Source of the DNA: an uncultured Ignavibacteria bacterium
GTDB lineage: Bacteria; Zixibacteria; MSB-5A5; JAABVY01
Assembly (NCBI GenBank): GCA_964627935.1
Contig: CAZVLB010000017.1
Coordinates: 6,853 to 70,852, forward strand
DNA length: 64,000 nt
Reading direction: 5' to 3'
Position 1 is the first letter of the stretch; every line of letters begins with the position of its first letter. Position numbers and translations under genes: made by a program. Below are positions 9,751-17,033 of the stretch, one piece after another. The notes under the pieces were generated by a model. That model ran no database searches, was not told where the DNA came from, and was given only the letters and a program-made list of their open reading frames with translations.

Positions 9751-9965
9751 TTCGATATATCGCGCTAATTCTATATCATATATTGTTTTAAAATATTGAG
9801 CGTTTCACTTTTCAGAGCACCGAAACGTTCGTTCCTGCATCTCTGTCTTTCCTGGCACGAGCGCCATGCGCCCGCTGGACGATAAATATTTATCTGAACG
9901 TCAGTGCCATTTTTACCGTTTAATATATGCATTCAGTCAATTTGATTTTACTAAAAAGGGCATCT

Positions 9966-11120
9966 ATGTTCAGACGGTTCGCATTGTATCTGTTCATTTC
10001 AATCGCGGTCATACTGGCCTGCAGTGAAAATTCGACCGATCCGGTGGCTGAAAACCAGCCGATCGTTTTGCGGGTCCCCCTGCAATATGCCACCATCCAG
10101 GAGGCCATCGATGCCGCCTCTGACGGTGATACTGTTATGGTCGCCGATGGCAGCTATAGCGGGACGGGAAATCGCAATATAAATCTCAATGGTAAGGCGC
10201 TGGTATTGCGCTCGCAAAATGGAGCGGAAAACACGATTATAGATATTGCCGCCACATTTGAGGATAACTACCGGGCCTTTATTTTCAACAGCGGCGAGAG
10301 GCATTCATCAGTTATCGATGGATTTACCATTCGCAATGGTTACGGGTATGTTACTCGCGCTGAACGTGAGGGTGGTGCGATATATATTCGCCGGGCCTCG
10401 CCACTGATTAGAAACTGCATTTTCGAGGACAATTCCGGTGATAAAAACGGCGGGGCAATCGCTGCCATAGTTTCCAGTCTTAAAATAGAAAACTGTGTAT
10501 TTATAGGAAATTTCGCGGAATATGGAGCCGCTATTTATATATCCGGCCTGGACAATGATCAATTCGAGGGCCCGGTGACACCGTCTATAAAAGGCTGCTC
10601 ATTCGAACACAATTTCGGCGTTATCGGCGAGGGCTTCGGCGGTGCAATTTATATTCAGTACGGTAATATGGTGCTCGAGATTGAGGACTGCCTCTTTACC
10701 GGCAATTCATCCGGTGCAGGCGGGGCGATCGGAGCCGGTTTTAACTCCAGCGTGATGATAGACAACTGCACTTTCTATGACAATTCCGGAAAACTTGGAT
10801 CTGCGGTATATCTTTTTGGCAACAGGCCGGATACGATCACTAATACGATTATGGCCTTCAACAACGGCGGCGCGGCGCTGGAATGCAATATCCAGAACAA
10901 CATGACCATCACGAAATCCAATCTTTACAGAAATCAGGGTGGCGACTGGACCGGATGTGTGGCCTTTGAGTTCAATAAAAACTACAATATCTGGAGCAAC
11001 CCCCGCTTCTGTGATCCCGAATCCGGAGATTTTACACTTATGAACGATTCTCCCTGTAGTGCAGATAACAATGCCAGCGGTGAATTGATCGGTGCGTTCG
11101 AGGTGGGTTGCAGCCGATGA
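9966..11120 (+). CDS. Right-handed parallel beta-helix (pectin-lyase-like, Pmp-type GGAI repeats) lipoprotein
   Basis: Lipobox ILAC, TIQEAIDAA..GDTV.VADG.Y, repeated GGAI / F.xN motifs, NPRFCD..GDF C-terminus. Confidence 0.8.
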   Translation: MFRRFALYLFISIAVILACSENSTDPVAENQPIVLRVPLQYATIQEAIDAASDGDTVMVADGSYSGTGNRNINLNGKALVLRSQNGAENTIIDIAATFEDNYRAFIFNSGERHSSVIDGFTIRNGYGYVTRAEREGGAIYIRRASPLIRNCIFEDNSGDKNGGAIAAIVSSLKIENCVFIGNFAEYGAAIYISGLDNDQFEGPVTPSIKGCSFEHNFGVIGEGFGGAIYIQYGNMVLEIEDCLFTGNSSGAGGAIGAGFNSSVMIDNCTFYDNSGKLGSAVYLFGNRPDTITNTIMAFNNGGAALECNIQNNMTITKSNLYRNQGGDWTGCVAFEFNKNYNIWSNPRFCDPESGDFTLMNDSPCSADNNASGELIGAFEVGCSR

Positions 11121-11227
11121 TTCGCAGAAACTGCGCCGTTTATAAGTTGTATAATACTTATGCGGAATGCGATGGGACAGTATAAATTGAGGTGATAATG
11201 CGGCGGGTATGTTTCGGTTCTTGCGCA

Positions 11228-11240
11228 TAAGTCCTTGATT
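11228..11240 (-). promoter_or_regulatory. IHF-type binding site candidate
   Basis: Reverse strand AATCAAGGACTTA = exact WATCAANNNNTTR consensus, adjacent to -35 element. Confidence 0.4.
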
Positions 11241-11244
11241 TTAC

Positions 11245-11273
11245 TTGACAAATCAGTGTTGTATAAATATAAT
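11245..11273 (+). promoter_or_regulatory. Consensus sigma70 promoter upstream of peptide/TPR-bEBP operon
   Basis: TTGACA (11245-11250) - 17 nt - TATAAT (11268-11273). Confidence 0.8.
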
Positions 11274-11404
11274 TGGATTTAGAAAACTGACTTTCCCCGA
11301 CACCCTTATAAACCGCCCGAATTTTAATTAATCACTGTTTGTGTATTTACGTCTATTTTTCGGGTTGATAATTTTTGTTTTATAATATCCAAGGAGCGTG
11401 CCCC

Positions 11405-11719
11405 ATGCATTGCAAGAAAATTTTAATTTTCACTGTTCTGCTCCTGTTCCTGGCTGTCAATTCTGTCCCATTGATTGCCTCTGATCGTCCGATGCAGGAT
11501 CCGACGATCGAAAATGCTCATAACAATGAGGCGGATGGCGGCGGTGGTGGTGAGGAACACCCCTGGCAGGACAATGATGATGACGATGATGGGCTTTTCA
11601 ATTACAAGAAAGGCTTGCAGTATCTGATCAGCCTGTTTACCAGAGACAAAGAGGCCGACCAGAAACCCGAAAGGTCCAAAAAGGCCGAACCGGTCAAGAA
11701 ATTTGATAAGAAGAAATAA
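11405..11719 (+). CDS. Small exported protein (104 aa), candidate signalling pro-peptide
   Basis: AAGGAG RBS; signal peptide MHCKKILIFTVLLLFLAVNSVPLIA; low-complexity GGGGG-EEHPWQD-NDDDDD segment; Lys-rich tail. Confidence 0.75.
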   Translation: MHCKKILIFTVLLLFLAVNSVPLIASDRPMQDPTIENAHNNEADGGGGGEEHPWQDNDDDDDGLFNYKKGLQYLISLFTRDKEADQKPERSKKAEPVKKFDKKK

Positions 11720-11736
11720 GCTTATCGCAAACAGAT

Positions 11737-13965
11737 ATGAAATCAATTAGCGCGACAGAATTAGCGGAGCAGGCGGTTATTTCGATCAGGGCCGCAATTG
11801 AGGAAGGCGACTACAAGGGCGCATTGGCCGCCCTGCGTGAGGCCGAATCTCAGGACAGCGGAGTGCTGGAAAATTCACCCCGTTTCCTGGAAATGAAGGC
11901 CCGGATCCTCAATTTGATGGGCGATTACGGTACTGCCCTGGATGCCGCGCAATCCGCCTATAAGCTGGCTCGTTCCGGAACGGACAATGATCTGATTGCC
12001 CGTATCCAGACGCAAACAGCCAAGGCCTATCTGTCGCTTGGTAAAACCGAGCAGGCTGAACGGGAATACGGCGATGTTATCGCCTCTTACCGCAGGTCAG
12101 GCAATGTCGGCGGTATCATAGATACATTAAACCGCCTGGCCCAGATCAACTTTATCGAATCCGATTTTGAGCGGGCCGCACGGGTACTGAATGAAGCCCT
12201 GGAATATGCCCGTCAAAACGGCCTGACCGACAGAATTGCCAAGCTGACCGGAAACCTGGGCCAGATTGCCAGTATGCTGGGCGATTACGATCAGGCGGTT
12301 GAACATATCGGCATATCGATCGCAAGAAATGCCGAGATCAAAAATTTCCCCAACCTGTGTCGCGCCTATCTATCATTGGCTTATGCGGAAATTCGCCTGG
12401 GCAATTTCGATTCTGCCCGCAAATCATTGCATAGAGCCGAGAGATTGATAGAAAAACATAACCTGACCCGTGAATACGGTATCTTCAATGAATACCTGGC
12501 CGATCTCGAATACGAGGTGGGCAATTATGATCAGGCGCTCGAGGCAATCAGTAAGACACTCGAACATGCCTATAAGCTCAGTGCCGCTTCCGCGCTCATT
12601 TCTCAGGGAGAGAGATTGAAGGCTGAAATACTACTCCAGAAGAATGACCTCGATGGGGCACGCAAAGCAGCCCGGAGCGCATTGGAAGTTGCCGAAAAGA
12701 TCGGTGAAAAGCTGGAAGCCGGTTCGGCCAAACGAGTACTGGCCGAGCTGGCCTCATTGCGACGCGAGAACCAGAAATCGCGGGACCTGATCTATTCGGC
12801 CATCGACCTGATCAAGGGCAGTTATGCACGCCATGATCTGGCCCTTGCTTATGTCTCGGCCTACCGTATTCATCGCGGCAATATCGGCCAGTCACAGTAT
12901 TATCTGCAGATGGCGCGGGAGTTGTATTCGGCTATGGGGCTTGATTTTGAGCTGAATCACAGTGCATCGCATAAGCAGTCCGAGGAAACCAATTATGAAA
13001 TCGCCAGCTCAGAGGGCGAAATCATCAGCATCATAACATCAGACCGTCGCATGAAAGCTATCATGAGAGCGGTTGACTCGATCAAGGATTCAGATATTCC
13101 AATCTTAATCGGCGGCGAAACCGGAACCGGCAAGGACCAGCTGGCAAAATATATTCATTATTCCTCCAAACGAAGGAGCAAAAATTTCATTCCGGTCAAC
13201 TGCGCCGCGATACCTCATGAACTGGCCGAATCCGAGCTGTTCGGGCATGTCAAAGGGGCCTACACAAATGCCGTGCAAAACAAAGATGGCCTCATAGTTG
13301 CGGCCGATGGGGGAACGCTATTCTTAAATGAGATCGGCGAACTCTCGCCTGCTATACAGGCCAAACTGCTGGGCGTGCTTGAGAATAAGAGAGTTATGAG
13401 GATAGGCGATCCTAACCCGCGCGAGGTTGATTTCAGGCTGATCTGCGCCACAAATCGTGATCTCGAAGAAGAGGTGCGCGAGGGCACATTCCGGCAGGAT
13501 CTCTATTTCCGTATTGCCGTGATGACATTCGAACTTCCGCCCTTATCGCAGCGAGGCGATGATCTCTTTGAGCTTATTACACATTTCCTGAGGCAGCATG
13601 GTTTCGAGGTAAATCTGGAAAAAGATTTTACTTCAAAAGAGCTCAGGTCCAAACTTATGGGCTATGACTGGCCCGGCAATATCCGTGAATTACGCAATGA
13701 GATCAATCTGCTGGCGCTTTCATTCCCGGGAGATACGCATAAGGTTCTTGAGGAGCTGGCCTCCAAGCTGTCCGATGAAGCCAACCAGGCCAAGGTGGAT
13801 CATGATGCCGGCCTTGCCGACCAGATCAACGCCTTTGAGAGGGGCAAGATTCTGGAGGCTCTGGCACAGACCGATTATGTTATCCGCCAGGCAGCATCTC
13901 ATCTCAAGATGCCGGAGGCTACCTTGCGTTCGAAGATAAAGAAACATAATATTATTATTGCGTAG
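11737..13965 (+). CDS. TPR-domain sigma54-interacting transcriptional regulator (bEBP)
   Basis: ~400 aa TPR-like helical repeats; Walker A GETGTGKD; ESELFGH; GAYTNA (GAFTGA variant); FRQDLYFR; WPGNIREL; Fis-type HTH. Confidence 0.9.
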   Translation: MKSISATELAEQAVISIRAAIEEGDYKGALAALREAESQDSGVLENSPRFLEMKARILNLMGDYGTALDAAQSAYKLARSGTDNDLIARIQTQTAKAYLSLGKTEQAEREYGDVIASYRRSGNVGGIIDTLNRLAQINFIESDFERAARVLNEALEYARQNGLTDRIAKLTGNLGQIASMLGDYDQAVEHIGISIARNAEIKNFPNLCRAYLSLAYAEIRLGNFDSARKSLHRAERLIEKHNLTREYGIFNEYLADLEYEVGNYDQALEAISKTLEHAYKLSAASALISQGERLKAEILLQKNDLDGARKAARSALEVAEKIGEKLEAGSAKRVLAELASLRRENQKSRDLIYSAIDLIKGSYARHDLALAYVSAYRIHRGNIGQSQYYLQMARELYSAMGLDFELNHSASHKQSEETNYEIASSEGEIISIITSDRRMKAIMRAVDSIKDSDIPILIGGETGTGKDQLAKYIHYSSKRRSKNFIPVNCAAIPHELAESELFGHVKGAYTNAVQNKDGLIVAADGGTLFLNEIGELSPAIQAKLLGVLENKRVMRIGDPNPREVDFRLICATNRDLEEEVREGTFRQDLYFRIAVMTFELPPLSQRGDDLFELITHFLRQHGFEVNLEKDFTSKELRSKLMGYDWPGNIRELRNEINLLALSFPGDTHKVLEELASKLSDEANQAKVDHDAGLADQINAFERGKILEALAQTDYVIRQAASHLKMPEATLRSKIKKHNIIIA

Positions 13966-14174
13966 AAATTAAAAAATCCGACGGTAATTCTTACGGCTTC
14001 ATAATTCGCTTATATTCAACAACTTACATTAGTCATCCCATATTTGGTGATTGCATCGAAGCAAATTCTGCGCTTATTGGATATTTCCCATTTTTAATAA
14101 CCGGCTTATCGTCATCCTGTCTAATATATTGTCTAATAATGGATTAAGCCAGCCGATTGTCAGCATTTGTTTTT

Positions 14175-14190
14175 TGGCACAATGATTGCA
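14175..14190 (+). promoter_or_regulatory. Sigma54 (-24/-12) promoter
   Basis: TGGCAC-AATGA-TTGCA, GG-N10-GC spacing exact; 210 nt downstream of a bEBP gene. Confidence 0.85.
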
Positions 14191-14200
14191 TTATATATGA

Positions 14201-14315
14201 GTGCTTTTATAAGCATGTGAGCTTTTTCTGGGTTACCTCCCTTTTTGAAAGAGTAATTCGGGAGGCTTTGGGCATTAATCCCTTCATCCTTGGCGGAGGA
14301 TGAAGGGATTTTTTT
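14201..14315 (+). ncRNA. Putative sigma54-dependent small RNA (~115 nt)
   Basis: Begins at predicted +1 of sigma54 promoter, 5' hairpin GTGCTT-TTAT-AAGCAT, CCTCCC/GGGAGG stem, ends in intrinsic terminator; no translatable ORF. Confidence 0.6.
14277..14315 (+). terminator. Intrinsic terminator
   Basis: AATCCCTTCATCCT-TGGCGG-AGGATGAAGGGATT perfect 14-bp stem followed by T run. Confidence 0.85.
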
Positions 14316-14319
14316 ATCA

Positions 14320-14348
14320 TTGCGAAACATTTTCCGTTTAAATATCAT
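14320..14348 (+). promoter_or_regulatory. Candidate sigma70 promoter of DUF202 gene
   Basis: TTGCGA - 17 nt - TATCAT. Confidence 0.45.
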
Positions 14349-14378
14349 TATAATGAAAACAGATTGTGGTGATAAAAT

Positions 14379-14765
14379 ATGACAATGGATAAACCCGCAA
14401 AAAATTTCAAGGGCTGCGAAAAGCCTAACGAATCAGAGATTATTGGACGGATTACCATGCTCCTGGCGGCCAAACGAACATCGTTGGCTGTGCTCAGGAC
14501 CGGAATAGCAATCCTTACCCTGCCGTTTTCGGTTGTAACTGTTTTGATTGCAACATCCAAAAGCTATGAATTTACCGAAAACCTGCTTTTCATTATACCT
14601 TTGATGGCTCTGAATACCCTTCTGGTTGCGCTGAGTATGTATCTTATGGCTCGTTCCATATTGCGCATCCATAAAATAGATATCCTCATTACCAAATTGA
14701 AAGAGGAGGATCCCCAGGTCATGAAAACCACTGACTGGGAGCATGAGCTTACCGATGTGAAATAA
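14379..14765 (+). CDS. DUF202-like small inner membrane protein
   Basis: LAAKRTSLAVLRTGIA motif followed by two TM helices. Confidence 0.65.
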   Translation: MTMDKPAKNFKGCEKPNESEIIGRITMLLAAKRTSLAVLRTGIAILTLPFSVVTVLIATSKSYEFTENLLFIIPLMALNTLLVALSMYLMARSILRIHKIDILITKLKEEDPQVMKTTDWEHELTDVK

Positions 14766-14854: not shown

Positions 14855-16252
14855 ATCAGCAAGCAGAGAACTATCGGCAGAACAGTGGAATTACGGGGTG
14901 TTGGCCTGCATACCGGATGTGAATCGATTACCCGTTTTTGCCCGGCGGGCATTGATGAAGGCATCACATTCAAGCGCACAGATGCTCCCGGATGTCCCAA
15001 AATTCCCGCACTGCTGGAAAATGTCGTTGACCTCAACCGTGGCACAACATTGGGGGTGGGCGAATACAAGGTACATACCGTAGAACACGTCCTATCGGCT
15101 TTAGCAGGTATGGAAATAGACAACATTGTTGTTGAGCTGGATAATATTGAGCCTCCGATCATGGATGGTTCCATGAAACCGTTCGTGGACAAAATCATCG
15201 AAGCCGGGATAGTCGAGCAGGATGCCGAAAAGAACTACCTTGTCATAGACCAGCCGATTTCATATTCCGAACCGGATCGCAATATTGATATTGTCGTGAC
15301 TCCCTCTGAAGCAATTAGAATAACCTTTCTGATAGACTACAAAAATCCGGCTCTGGGTACCCAGTATACATCCCTGGTGAACCTGGAGGAGGAATTCGTC
15401 GATGAATTTGCGCCGGCGCGCACATTCTGCTTCCTGTCCGAGGTCCAGACCCTGCGTGAACAGGGCATAATCAAAGGCGGTGCACTGGATTCCGCGATTG
15501 TAATCGTGGACAGTGACCTGGATCAGGATCATAAAAATGAGATCAAGAATCAGTTCAATCTGAAAGAAGATATCTTTATCGGCAAGACCGGTATCTTGAA
15601 TGATATACCGATGCGTTTTTACAATGAGCCGGTGCGTCATAAAGCGGCAGATTTATTGGGCGACCTGATGTTAATCGGTATGCCGATCAAGGGGCATATA
15701 CTTGCCGCCCGCTCGGGACATGCCGCCAATGTCGCCCTGGCGCGCAAAATTAAGTCTGTCCATGAAAAGAAGCAGATGTCGGAGAAATTCTCCAGTACTG
15801 CAGCCAGGGGCAGGGATTTTATGTTTGATTCGGTGGCGGTCATGAATATCATGCCGCACCGTTACCCATTCCTTCTGGTGGACCGAATCATCGACCTGGA
15901 GCCGGGCAAGAAAGTTATCGCCCAGAAAAATGTTACCATCAATGAGCCCTTCTTTCAGGGCCATTTCCCCGGCCACCCAATCATGCCGGGAGTTTTAATA
16001 ATAGAGGCGCTGGCACAGGCGGGCGGTTTTCTGCTTTTGCATACACTTGATGATCCGGACAGCAAGCTGGTATATTTCATGTCAATCGAACATGCCAAAT
16101 TCAGAAAACCGGTGCTTCCCGGGGATGTGCTCAGATTCGAACTGGAACTGAAAGCCCTGCGCAGGAACACATGCAAGATTGCGGGCAAGGCTTATGTCGA
16201 CGGGCAGGTGGCCGCCGAGGCGACCTTTATGTCCGCCATCGTGGATAGATAA
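14855..16252 (+). CDS. lpxC/fabZ: Bifunctional LpxC (UDP-3-O-acyl-GlcNAc deacetylase) / FabZ dehydratase; likely non-canonical start
   Basis: KQRTI..GVGLHTG, TVEHVLSAL, ARTF, RHKAADLLGD, HRYPFLLVD, GHFPGHPIMPGV; first canonical start (GTG 14885) lies after KQRT. Confidence 0.95.
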   Translation: MSKQRTIGRTVELRGVGLHTGCESITRFCPAGIDEGITFKRTDAPGCPKIPALLENVVDLNRGTTLGVGEYKVHTVEHVLSALAGMEIDNIVVELDNIEPPIMDGSMKPFVDKIIEAGIVEQDAEKNYLVIDQPISYSEPDRNIDIVVTPSEAIRITFLIDYKNPALGTQYTSLVNLEEEFVDEFAPARTFCFLSEVQTLREQGIIKGGALDSAIVIVDSDLDQDHKNEIKNQFNLKEDIFIGKTGILNDIPMRFYNEPVRHKAADLLGDLMLIGMPIKGHILAARSGHAANVALARKIKSVHEKKQMSEKFSSTAARGRDFMFDSVAVMNIMPHRYPFLLVDRIIDLEPGKKVIAQKNVTINEPFFQGHFPGHPIMPGVLIIEALAQAGGFLLLHTLDDPDSKLVYFMSIEHAKFRKPVLPGDVLRFELELKALRRNTCKIAGKAYVDGQVAAEATFMSAIVDR

Positions 16253-16253
16253 T

Positions 16254-17033
16254 ATGGCTGAATCCAAAATTCATCCTACAGCAATAATCGACCCCGGGGC
16301 AAATCTCGATTCATCAGTGGAGGTCGGGCCCTATGCCATTATCGAGGATGATGTAGAAATCGCCGCCGGATGTAAAATCGGCCCGCGCTCATTGATTGCC
16401 TCCGGCACCCGCATGGAGGAGAATGTCCAGGTCTTTCATTGTGCCACAGTCGGAACCATTCCCCAGGATTTGAAATTCGGGGGCGAAAAAACAATCCTCA
16501 AAATCGGCGCCAATTCAATCATTCGCGAATATTGTACCCTCAATCGCGGTACCGACTGGTCGGGCCAGTCTGTGCTGGGCAGGAACTGCATGATGATGGC
16601 CTACTGCCATATTCCCCATGATGCTGTCGTTGGCGATAATGTTATCATGGCCAATTGCGTGCAGATGGGCGGGCATGTGGTTGTCGGTGATTATGCTATA
16701 ATAGGGGGTGGTTCGGTCGTTCATCAGTTTACCAAGATCGGCGCGCATGTAATCATTGGCGGCGGGCTCCGTATCACCCAGGATATAGTTCCCTTTGCCG
16801 TGATCGGCGGCTATCCGCTGGAGGTCGGCGGTGTAAATATAGTGGGCCTTAAAAGGCGCGGCTTCAAACTGGATCAGATCAAGGTTCTCAAACAGGCCTT
16901 TCGCTTTCTGTTTGAGTCTGGTCTGAATACCTCCCAGGCGGTCGATAAAATAAGGGCCGAACTGGAGCAAACCGATGAGATCAGGCTGCTTCTGGATTTT
17001 ATCGAAAAATCGGACCGGGGCCTGATAAAATAA
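16254..17033 (+). CDS. lpxA: Acyl-ACP--UDP-N-acetylglucosamine O-acyltransferase
   Basis: IHPTAIID, PQDLKF, IREYCTLNRGT, hexapeptide repeats, VHQF, N.VGLKRRGF. Confidence 0.95.
   Translation: MAESKIHPTAIIDPGANLDSSVEVGPYAIIEDDVEIAAGCKIGPRSLIASGTRMEENVQVFHCATVGTIPQDLKFGGEKTILKIGANSIIREYCTLNRGTDWSGQSVLGRNCMMMAYCHIPHDAVVGDNVIMANCVQMGGHVVVGDYAIIGGGSVVHQFTKIGAHVIIGGGLRITQDIVPFAVIGGYPLEVGGVNIVGLKRRGFKLDQIKVLKQAFRFLFESGLNTSQAVDKIRAELEQTDEIRLLLDFIEKSDRGLIK

Follow-up and report, generated by a model that had tools for sequence, protein, structure and literature searches.

How could a short motif in an exported protein act on a transcription activator in the cytoplasm? The question is raised by a two-gene locus in the window, by which we mean a 64,000-nucleotide stretch of contig CAZVLB010000017.1 (assembly GCA_964627935.1, positions 6,853 to 70,852 of the forward strand) from an uncultured bacterium of the Zixibacteria; positions are counted from its first letter. 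The first gene encodes a small protein with a signal-peptide-like N-terminus and the motif EEHPWQD, and the second encodes a sigma-54 activator with a sensor of tetratricopeptide repeats (TPRs). A preliminary description of the DNA had compared the motif to a TPR-binding ligand, and in silico that comparison holds up, through complex prediction, covariation of the contacts, fixed adjacency of the genes and three cognate pairs in one genome. We conclude that the motif is probably the cognate ligand of the neighbouring activator's TPR sensor. Over the whole explanation, in which an exported protein would supply the TPR ligand that switches the sigma-54 activator, we are evenly divided.

The small protein and the activator beside it

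The features of the locus are as follows.

11245..11273, + strand: sigma-70-type promoter, TTGACA-17-TATAAT, 12/12 consensus, the sole 12/12 site in 10900-14400
11391..11396, + strand: AAGGAG, ribosome-binding site for the small gene, 8 nt short of its ATG
11405..11719, + strand: small exported protein gene, 104 aa (ATG at 11405, TAA at 11717-11719)
11405..11479, + strand: signal-peptide-like residues 1-25 (MHCKK, hydrophobic core, VPLIA), putatively cleaved
11546..11578, + strand: motif region, residues 48-58, GGEEHPWQDND, the only partner residues in confident predicted TPR contact
11552-11572, + strand: motif core EEHPWQD (E50-D56)
11594..11638, + strand: amphipathic segment LFNYKKGLQYLISLF, residues 64-78, with F78 nearly invariant; not a membrane span here
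11639..11716, + strand: Lys-rich tail, 26 residues, net charge +5
11737..13965, + strand: TPR-sigma54 activator, 742 aa, starting 17 nt after the small-gene stop
12121..12717, + strand: predicted ligand groove, TPR residues 129-327, with invariant N173 and specificity positions 176, 180, 198 and 206

We regard 11405-11719 as a real gene with near certainty. Homologues with conserved AAGGAG spacing occur across the order and the phylum, so that it is not a chance open reading frame (ORF); the AAGGAG stands at identical spacing in 9 of 9 order-level loci. A word-indexed protein search returned the small protein itself and one metagenome protein, 71% identical, and nothing else. By six-frame search the gene was found in all 4 other genomes of the genus, in the family's other genus and in 3 sister-family genomes, and by profile search in 12 of the 12 genomes of the order. 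With a 25-row profile we detected the small protein in 136 of 285 Zixibacteria genomes, including 90 of the 198 of high quality, and in 68 of 130 genera. An exhaustive profile search of 1.84 billion representatives gave 100 proteins at E<=0.001, with lengths of 83-136 aa; the 10 that we looked up were annotated 'hypothetical protein' or were unnamed. A pattern search from a 10-row alignment gave 93 matches, of which 3 were confirmed, all on Zixibacteria contigs of the same genus. The small protein belongs to no Pfam family, and the matches to NCBIfam models, each to 1 of 25 members at most, were all weak (best E 0.0025).

The layout given in the preliminary description, a Gly/Asp linker carrying EEHPWQD at 11552-11572 followed by an amphipathic helix and a Lys-rich tail, agrees with ours to the base. 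The protein reads MHCKK, a 17-residue hydrophobic core and VPLIA|SD, then DGGGGG-EEHPWQD-NDDDDD, the motif being contained in an acidic Gly/Asp-rich stretch of ~40 residues with a net charge of -12. A lack of HPW conservation among syntenic homologues would, by that description, have refuted its reading, and the opposite was found: Pro and Trp never change, and the His before them gives way only to D, or rarely to Q or N. Across 25 aligned small proteins the sole invariant residues are M1, P53 and W54, with F78 nearly so. Among the 100 representatives P and W are invariant in all 100, the preceding residue is H in 81, D in 17 and Q in 2, and the logo is [DE]-[DEG]-[HD]-P-W-[QG]-[DG]-[DNE].

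The N-terminus resembles a signal peptide, with a best 15-residue hydropathy of 2.59, a basic n-region and a conserved L-x-A|x-D site; K5, L23 and A25 are nearly invariant in the alignment. We made this call by inspection, from the n, h and c regions together with the conserved site, and we place the putative cut by signal peptidase I behind A25. The amphipathic segment, the candidate second span, reaches a best 19-residue Kyte-Doolittle mean of -0.07, a value that rules out a membrane span, and with it a hairpin or type I topology, for the window protein; hydropathy of at least 1.6 was found in only 5 of 25 relatives. A C-terminal sorting signal of the PEP-CTERM or LPXTG type was rejected, as 10-40 residues separate the motif from a segment that in most members does not resemble a span, and a tail of 20-49 residues across the family counts against a short basic C-terminus. 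We briefly considered a precursor of a ribosomally synthesized and post-translationally modified peptide, and no radical-SAM or other maturase was present among the annotated neighbour genes.

The activator consists of a TPR sensor (residues 1-413), an AAA+ Sigma54_activat domain (432-598, PF00158, E 3.2e-64) with a Walker A sequence, GETGTGK, and a Fis-type helix-turn-helix (HTH) domain, HTH_8 (699-737). The genome encodes sigma-54 itself (Sigma54_DBD of rpoN, E 8.7e-57). Of the traits of an enhancer-binding protein it has AAA+ with Walker A and a C-terminal HTH, together with sigma-54 in the genome and a -24/-12 promoter, described below. The sensor matched TPR_MalT (1.7e-24) and TPR_12 (5.4e-19), and an AlphaFold2 (AF2) model of residues 1-425 had 21 helices and a predicted local distance difference test score (pLDDT) of 89.5. 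Its fold resembles the peptide-binding TPR superhelices of LGN/Pins and NprR. KLC1/2 and LGN were the top matches by both sequence and fold; NprR and RapF were matched by the sensor profile (E 5e-8 and 2e-7), and NprR also by fold, at rank 41 (TM 0.62/0.72).

The pairing of the two genes is a fixed trait. The activator is the next gene in every order-level locus, and the pair is present in 12 of 12 genomes of the order. Eighteen weaker class-level matches comprised 13 clear pairs, 3 activators with a small ORF that the filter left unresolved, and 2 unrelated sequences, while in 58 of 60 further loci a small [HDQN]PW protein preceded a long ORF that aligns to the sensor. The distance from the small-ORF stop to the ATG of the activator was -4 to +35 nt in 20 of 23 loci, and in the other 3 the chosen GTG starts lay within ~10 nt of that stop. 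Judged by the DNA sequence, the small gene and the activator are co-transcribed from the perfect sigma-70 promoter, and a strong terminator of the two-gene operon appears only past the small-RNA region described below. The leader between this promoter and the small gene is ~125 nt (11280-11404), long for so small an operon.

Predicted recognition of the motif by the TPR groove

We predicted the complex from sensor residues 1-425 (24-row alignment) and residues 27-104 of the mature small protein (25-row alignment). The score was 0.79 (runs 0.82, 0.79 and 0.78), versus 0.01 for the best of 3 controls (0.00-0.01). Of 157 solved complexes 116 attained a mark at the 0.79 level, as did 2 of 215 mismatched pairs, and the runs shared at least 29% of contacts. 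Because the partner had a pLDDT of 37-40, we take the small protein to be disordered except where it makes contact. On the partner's side low-error contact was confined to residues 48-58 (GGEEHPWQDND), and W54, Q55, P53 and H52 were predicted to touch sensor residues 132-139, 168-180, 194-216, 245-252 and 278-291 within an interface of 38 sensor residues. In this mode the invariant motif, [D/E]-x-[H/D]-P-W-[Q/G/D]-[D/G], would run in extended form along the concave groove of the superhelix, with the Trp between successive repeats and Asn173 at the contact. The Trp-acidic chain EEHPWQDNDDDDD fits the W-acidic motif type by its sequence, its contact with the groove being a prediction.

A Trp in acidic surroundings is known from the ligands of another TPR protein. 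The kinesin light chain TPR, as an excerpt of PMC6214655 describes it, takes up a Trp flanked by Asp/Glu, in a disordered chain, in its concave groove, where the Trp is sandwiched between successive repeats and binding has an electrostatic component. The likeness to kinesin light chain and LGN/Pins lies in the predicted placement of a Trp-acidic motif of a disordered partner in the concave TPR groove. Those proteins, however, are eukaryotic cytoplasmic cargo and polarity adaptors, whereas here a fixed Pro precedes the Trp, His or Asp precedes the Pro, the partner comes from a bacterium and is exported, and the TPR forms part of a transcription activator. Convergence may account for the likeness to kinesin light chain recognition.

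We then asked how ligand and receptor residues vary together. In 24 aligned pairs, ligand position 52 (H/D) tracks sensor position 180, and ligand position 55 (Q/D/G) tracks sensor positions 176, 198 and 206. Three paralogous pairs were held out when this rule was drawn, and 3 of 3 obey it. Over 85 ligand/receptor pairs in total, including 58 further pairs, the associations were as follows.

ligand D52 with sensor R/K180: 12/12 pairs
ligand H/Q/N52 with non-basic sensor 180: 73/73 pairs
ligand Q55 with sensor N198: 34/34 pairs
ligand Q55 with sensor N206: 33/34 pairs
ligand G55 with sensor E206: 34/40 pairs
ligand D55 with sensor R176 and S206: 8/8 pairs

Among 400 TPR columns, column 180 was the sole perfect predictor of ligand position 52, and the predictors of position 55 included 198 as the best, 206 as the fourth and 194 as the seventh. 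All four columns (180, 198, 206 and 194) fall within the predicted interface. As far as residue chemistry can be read from the alignment, the covarying changes are sensible, a ligand Asp being met by Arg or Lys. Ligand 52 would accordingly be read by receptor 180 in the proposed contact, and ligand 55 by receptor 176/198/206.

The pairing is repeated within the genome. A scan for the motif yielded three small proteins of this kind and no more, apart from a spurious 45-aa ORF, and each of the three lies directly upstream of one of the genome's three MalT-like TPR proteins. The preliminary description had proposed a search for HPW in small ORFs upstream of TPR-bearing enhancer-binding proteins; for [H/D]PW this gave a partner for 3 of 3 MalT-like TPR proteins. 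None of the 17 other ORFs in the genome that resemble bacterial enhancer-binding proteins is accompanied by an [H/D]PW small protein. Beside the window locus, the pairs are:

contig C10, ~107600-111240, - strand: second pair, a 107-aa exported protein (ASA|LDHPWDG) and a 979-aa TPR-sigma54 activator
contig C3, 27390-28647 (L069:3061-4348), - strand: third pair, a 111-aa DPW protein (GDGDPWDDP) and a 337-aa TPR-only protein

In the small protein of contig C10 the motif starts two residues past the predicted signal-peptide cut. The TPR protein of contig C3 has no AAA+ or HTH domain, and the two reading frames of its pair overlap by 58 nt across two A6 runs. This split form is identical in contigs of 4 runs, so that an assembly error can be set aside. 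Immediately upstream of the pair is a gene for an HTH_3 protein.

In a related genus (G005, L040:451-1662, - strand) a pair of the contig C3 type forms one 404-aa ORF with a signal peptide, DDDPWED, a helix and TPRs, adjoining a receiver-domain gene. Either a genuine fusion or an indel in that metagenome-assembled genome could account for it, and it is only a hint. When its N-terminal 110 residues were compared with 221-706-aa proteins, the only match was to itself; we place little weight on the gene fusion because it is a singleton in 5.8 billion proteins. Among 7998 scored candidates, no longer or fused form of the small protein was found at E<=0.001, which is weak evidence.

Possible routes from an exported motif to a cytoplasmic sensor

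In the explanation that we prefer, the small protein would be exported by a Sec-type route, leaving ~78 mature residues. After signal-peptide cleavage a fragment bearing the motif would be freed in the periplasm and taken up again into the cytoplasm, as in RRNPP peptide sensing, where its occupancy of the TPR groove would switch the AAA+ activator and, through it, a sigma-54 promoter and a small RNA. The processed pheromone that the preliminary description offered as a second likeness would likewise take processing, release and re-uptake. Export appears to be under selection, since every member keeps the putative signal peptide with its site. The conserved basic N-terminus, with the acidic region after the hydrophobic core, would place the motif on the periplasmic side. 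The insulated ligand/receptor classes, three per genome, look like private signalling channels. We favour re-uptake because of this selection for export, these insulated classes and the position of the contig C10 motif near the cut; even so, the route of export, processing and re-uptake falls somewhat short of an even chance in our judgement. More doubtful is a full RRNPP-like circuit in a diderm, in which a periplasmic cut would release an HPW peptide for re-uptake and a TPR-sigma54 activator would drive a single small RNA. If true, it would couple an input of the Rap-Phr kind to an output of the LuxO-Qrr kind, and the ligand/receptor classes, with three insulated pairs per genome, would act as private channels in the manner of pherotypes. 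Another possibility is that the circuit reports on periplasmic proteolysis.

Several points weigh against the preferred explanation. The motif lies on the exported side of the signal peptide, while the activator must be cytoplasmic, and nothing linked to the locus was recognised as a processing site, protease, exporter or importer. The family length of 83-136 aa exceeds that of typical propeptides, and a mere propeptide would have no need of the conserved C-terminal half, with F78 and the basic tail. A polyanionic peptide of ~1.2 kDa is unlikely to pass the general porins of the outer membrane, and cell-to-cell signalling is doubtful on that account. The sigma-54-contacting loop of the activator is GAYTNA (residues 507-512, 13255-13272), in place of the canonical GAFTGA; in 24 aligned relatives it is GA[FY]TNA, with G507, T510 and A512 invariant, so that the change from Gly to Asn is family-wide. 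Part of the complex score may stem from solved TPR-peptide complexes, such as those of LGN and kinesin light chain, that the predictor has retained. In the AF2 model of the fused paralogue the TPR part was confident and the motif was undocked, residues 16-97 having a pLDDT below 50. Finally, the independent switches are few. On a tree built without the interface columns we counted 3 for 52/180, all concordant, and 2-4 for position 55, those of G55/E206 being mixed and the other differing switches concordant. Tree-aware sign tests gave p values of 0.25-1, and with so few independent switches they cannot reach significance. The genome has one SBP_bac_5 (OppA-type) gene, which shows little.

The strongest rival keeps the binding and dispenses with processing and re-import. 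The unexported precursor would bind the sensor through its motif, Sec export would remove it, and the activator would report on export. Such regulators are known: FlgM, with sigma-28, and ExsE, with ExsC, are small disordered proteins whose export alters the activity of a cytoplasmic transcription factor, and they report in this way on their secretion systems. They leave through dedicated type III machines and carry no Sec signal peptide, whereas no type III machine is linked to the window locus. The same evidence for binding serves this rival, in which the whole mature chain could bind, as the motif is internal in the model, and the conserved C-terminal half could touch other parts of the activator. 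The genes are tightly or translationally coupled, so that ligand and receptor are made together, and in the related genome one paralogue is a single fused ORF. That fused form, however, is the singleton mentioned above, and in the genome of the window the same paralogue is split in the contigs of 4 runs. An efficient Sec signal would keep the cytoplasmic ligand near zero, and a sensor of one general pathway would need neither three insulated classes nor switches of class between genera. We consider export gating unlikely, although it deserves to be kept in view.

A second rival holds that the contact of motif and TPR is an artefact of modelling, and that the small protein is an envelope or periplasmic protein, for example one that binds cations or sits at a membrane surface, which is merely co-expressed or co-regulated with the activator. 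The disorder of the partner (pLDDT 37-40) would fit this, as would the plentiful TPR-peptide complexes among solved structures, the undocked motif in the fused paralogue and the small number of independent covariation events; the acidic run with its His/Asp could bind metal ions. An artefact would not readily yield controls of only 0.00-0.01, nor would it place the one column of 400 that tracks H/D, with opposite charge, in the predicted interface. Moreover, three held-out pairs obey the rule, and the adjacency persists even for a TPR protein that lacks an AAA+ or DNA-binding part. We think this rival quite improbable.

The alternative raised in the preliminary description is an anti-activator that stays uncleaved in the membrane and holds the activator there, for which PspA, NifL and HrpV serve as analogies. 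It has in its favour an N-terminal hydrophobic segment, a basic C-terminal tail and, in 5 of 25 relatives, a second segment of span level that would put the tail in the cytoplasm. We hold it to be very improbable, given that the window protein and 20 of 25 relatives have no second span, that the residues around the first span, basic before it and acidic behind it, would put the motif outside, away from the cytoplasmic activator, that the predicted contact is made by the motif and not the tail, and that the L-x-A|x-D site is conserved as a cleavage site would be.

Candidate output, related systems and neighbouring genes

Three elements lie downstream of the activator.

14058..14073, + strand: candidate activator-binding site GAAGCAAATTCTGCGC, a GCA-N6-TGC inverted repeat, ~115 nt upstream of the sigma-54 promoter
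14175..14189, + strand: sigma-54 promoter TGGCACAATGATTGC, an exact TGGCAC-N5-TTGC and the only exact match in 64 kb
14200..14316, + strand: candidate sigma-54-dependent small RNA, ~115 nt, ending in a terminator hairpin (14277-14310) and a T run

The sigma-54 promoter lies 210 nt past the activator stop, and a GGCA[CT]-N5-TTGC site occupies the same place in 9 of 9 order-level loci, which also share the arrangement of promoter and RNA-like element. By a simple pattern, 19 of 25 loci have a sigma-54 promoter with a small-RNA-like element within ~310 nt of the activator stop. When up to 2 mismatches were allowed, the sigma-54 pattern was not enriched in the window (51 observed versus 58.7 expected), and we rely on the exact site alone. 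The inverted repeat is conserved in order-level loci and would bind the activator. In the whole genome, the 12-mer of the repeat is followed within 120 nt by a sigma-54-type promoter only here and behind the contig C10 paralogue, where the same repeat is accompanied by a weaker -24/-12 site, TGGCAT-N5-TTGT. A further copy of the repeat occurs ~225 nt upstream of the contig C10 small gene.

The terminator hairpin of the candidate small RNA has 15 pairs. In the RNA the core CGGGAGGCTTTGGGC is invariant across the family, and compensatory changes were found in 8 of 24 predicted pairs, mostly in the terminator. The sister-family RNA has a different body, with TTTGGGC in common. An Rfam scan of 11000-14500 gave no match at E<=1, and a search of public sequencing runs listed no RNA run that contains this DNA. 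Duplexes of the small RNA with the ribosome-binding site of its own operon had energies no better than shuffles at 6 loci (z -0.56 to +0.56). The most likely direct target of the activator, on the arrangement of these elements, is the sigma-54 promoter with the candidate small RNA just downstream. At two loci of one distant family (L074 and L085, family f8) the sigma-54 promoter and short RNA-like element downstream of the activator are followed by a gene resembling that of a bacterial-microcompartment shell protein.

LuxO-Qrr of Vibrio offers a parallel on the output side. There a sigma-54 enhancer-binding protein directly drives a neighbouring small RNA gene as the output of cell signalling, and LuxO is a response regulator under a phosphorelay. 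Our locus likewise has a sigma-54 activator with an adjacent candidate small RNA target. It differs in that a TPR sensor replaces the receiver domain, the ligand would be a protein or peptide, and the RNA has no Rfam match.

On the input side the locus resembles the RRNPP systems of Firmicutes and their phages (Rap-Phr, NprR-NprX, PlcR-PapR, AimR-AimP), where a small gene with a Sec signal, putative here, lies directly beside the gene of a cytoplasmic TPR receptor, the peptide is bound inside a TPR superhelix, as predicted here, and ligand and receptor vary together. In such pairs the mature peptide leaves the cell and is brought back by Opp before it meets the receptor. The five-point RRNPP signature, in the excerpted text of PMC10075063, includes a propeptide of 10-100 aa with a Sec/SPI signal, a receptor of 250-500 aa with peptide-binding TPRs, and propeptide and receptor genes that are direct neighbours. 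The pairing of a cytoplasmic TPR receptor with a secreted peptide encoded next to it is described there as a trait of Gram-positive bacteria (Firmicutes). Our receptor does have TPRs of this kind, by its TPR_MalT, TPR_12 and NprR/RapF matches, and the genes are neighbours, with a 17-nt gap here and the pair in 12 of 12 genomes of the order. The small protein, in contrast, is longer (104 aa here and 83-136 aa in the family, versus 10-100), as is the receptor (742 aa, its sensor alone being ~413, versus 250-500). The receptor is a sigma-54 AAA+ activator with a Fis-type HTH and not an HTH or phosphatase protein; the small gene lies upstream, and its product has the motif in mid-protein and a C-terminal half that is conserved; the host belongs to the FCB group and is a diderm; and the output is a candidate sigma-54 small RNA. 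Because the lengths of receptor and propeptide are off, the output domain differs and the host is a diderm, we do not count the cassette as a member of the RRNPP family.

If the preferred explanation is right, the cassette would carry RRNPP-type logic into a diderm phylum without a cultured model. Sigma-54 activators are known to sense small molecules, phosphorylation and protein anti-activators. A full-text literature search found no activator with a TPR-superhelix sensor matched to a motif in a neighbouring exported protein and no paper describing the cassette, and among the papers listed for Zixibacteria and quorum sensing none concerned it by title or abstract. The cassette is open to experiment, with an 11-residue peptide, a defined pocket (N173, M180, Q176, N198 and N206), natural charge-swap pairs and a simple output of one promoter and one small RNA. 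It would be convenient for studying the evolution of ligand-receptor specificity and is a possible source of orthogonal peptide-controlled switches.

The genomic neighbours of the cassette are not conserved between families. Upstream, at 9927-11120, lies the gene of an exported right-handed beta-helix protein (Beta_helix, DUF5123, Chlam_PMP repeat), which recurs in some loci of the same genus and is absent beside the cassette in distant families. Downstream, a fused LpxC-FabZ gene (14885-16252) is followed by an lpxA-like gene (16179-17033); we take the LpxC-FabZ fusion to be typical of the FCB group, which fits the assignment to the Zixibacteria.

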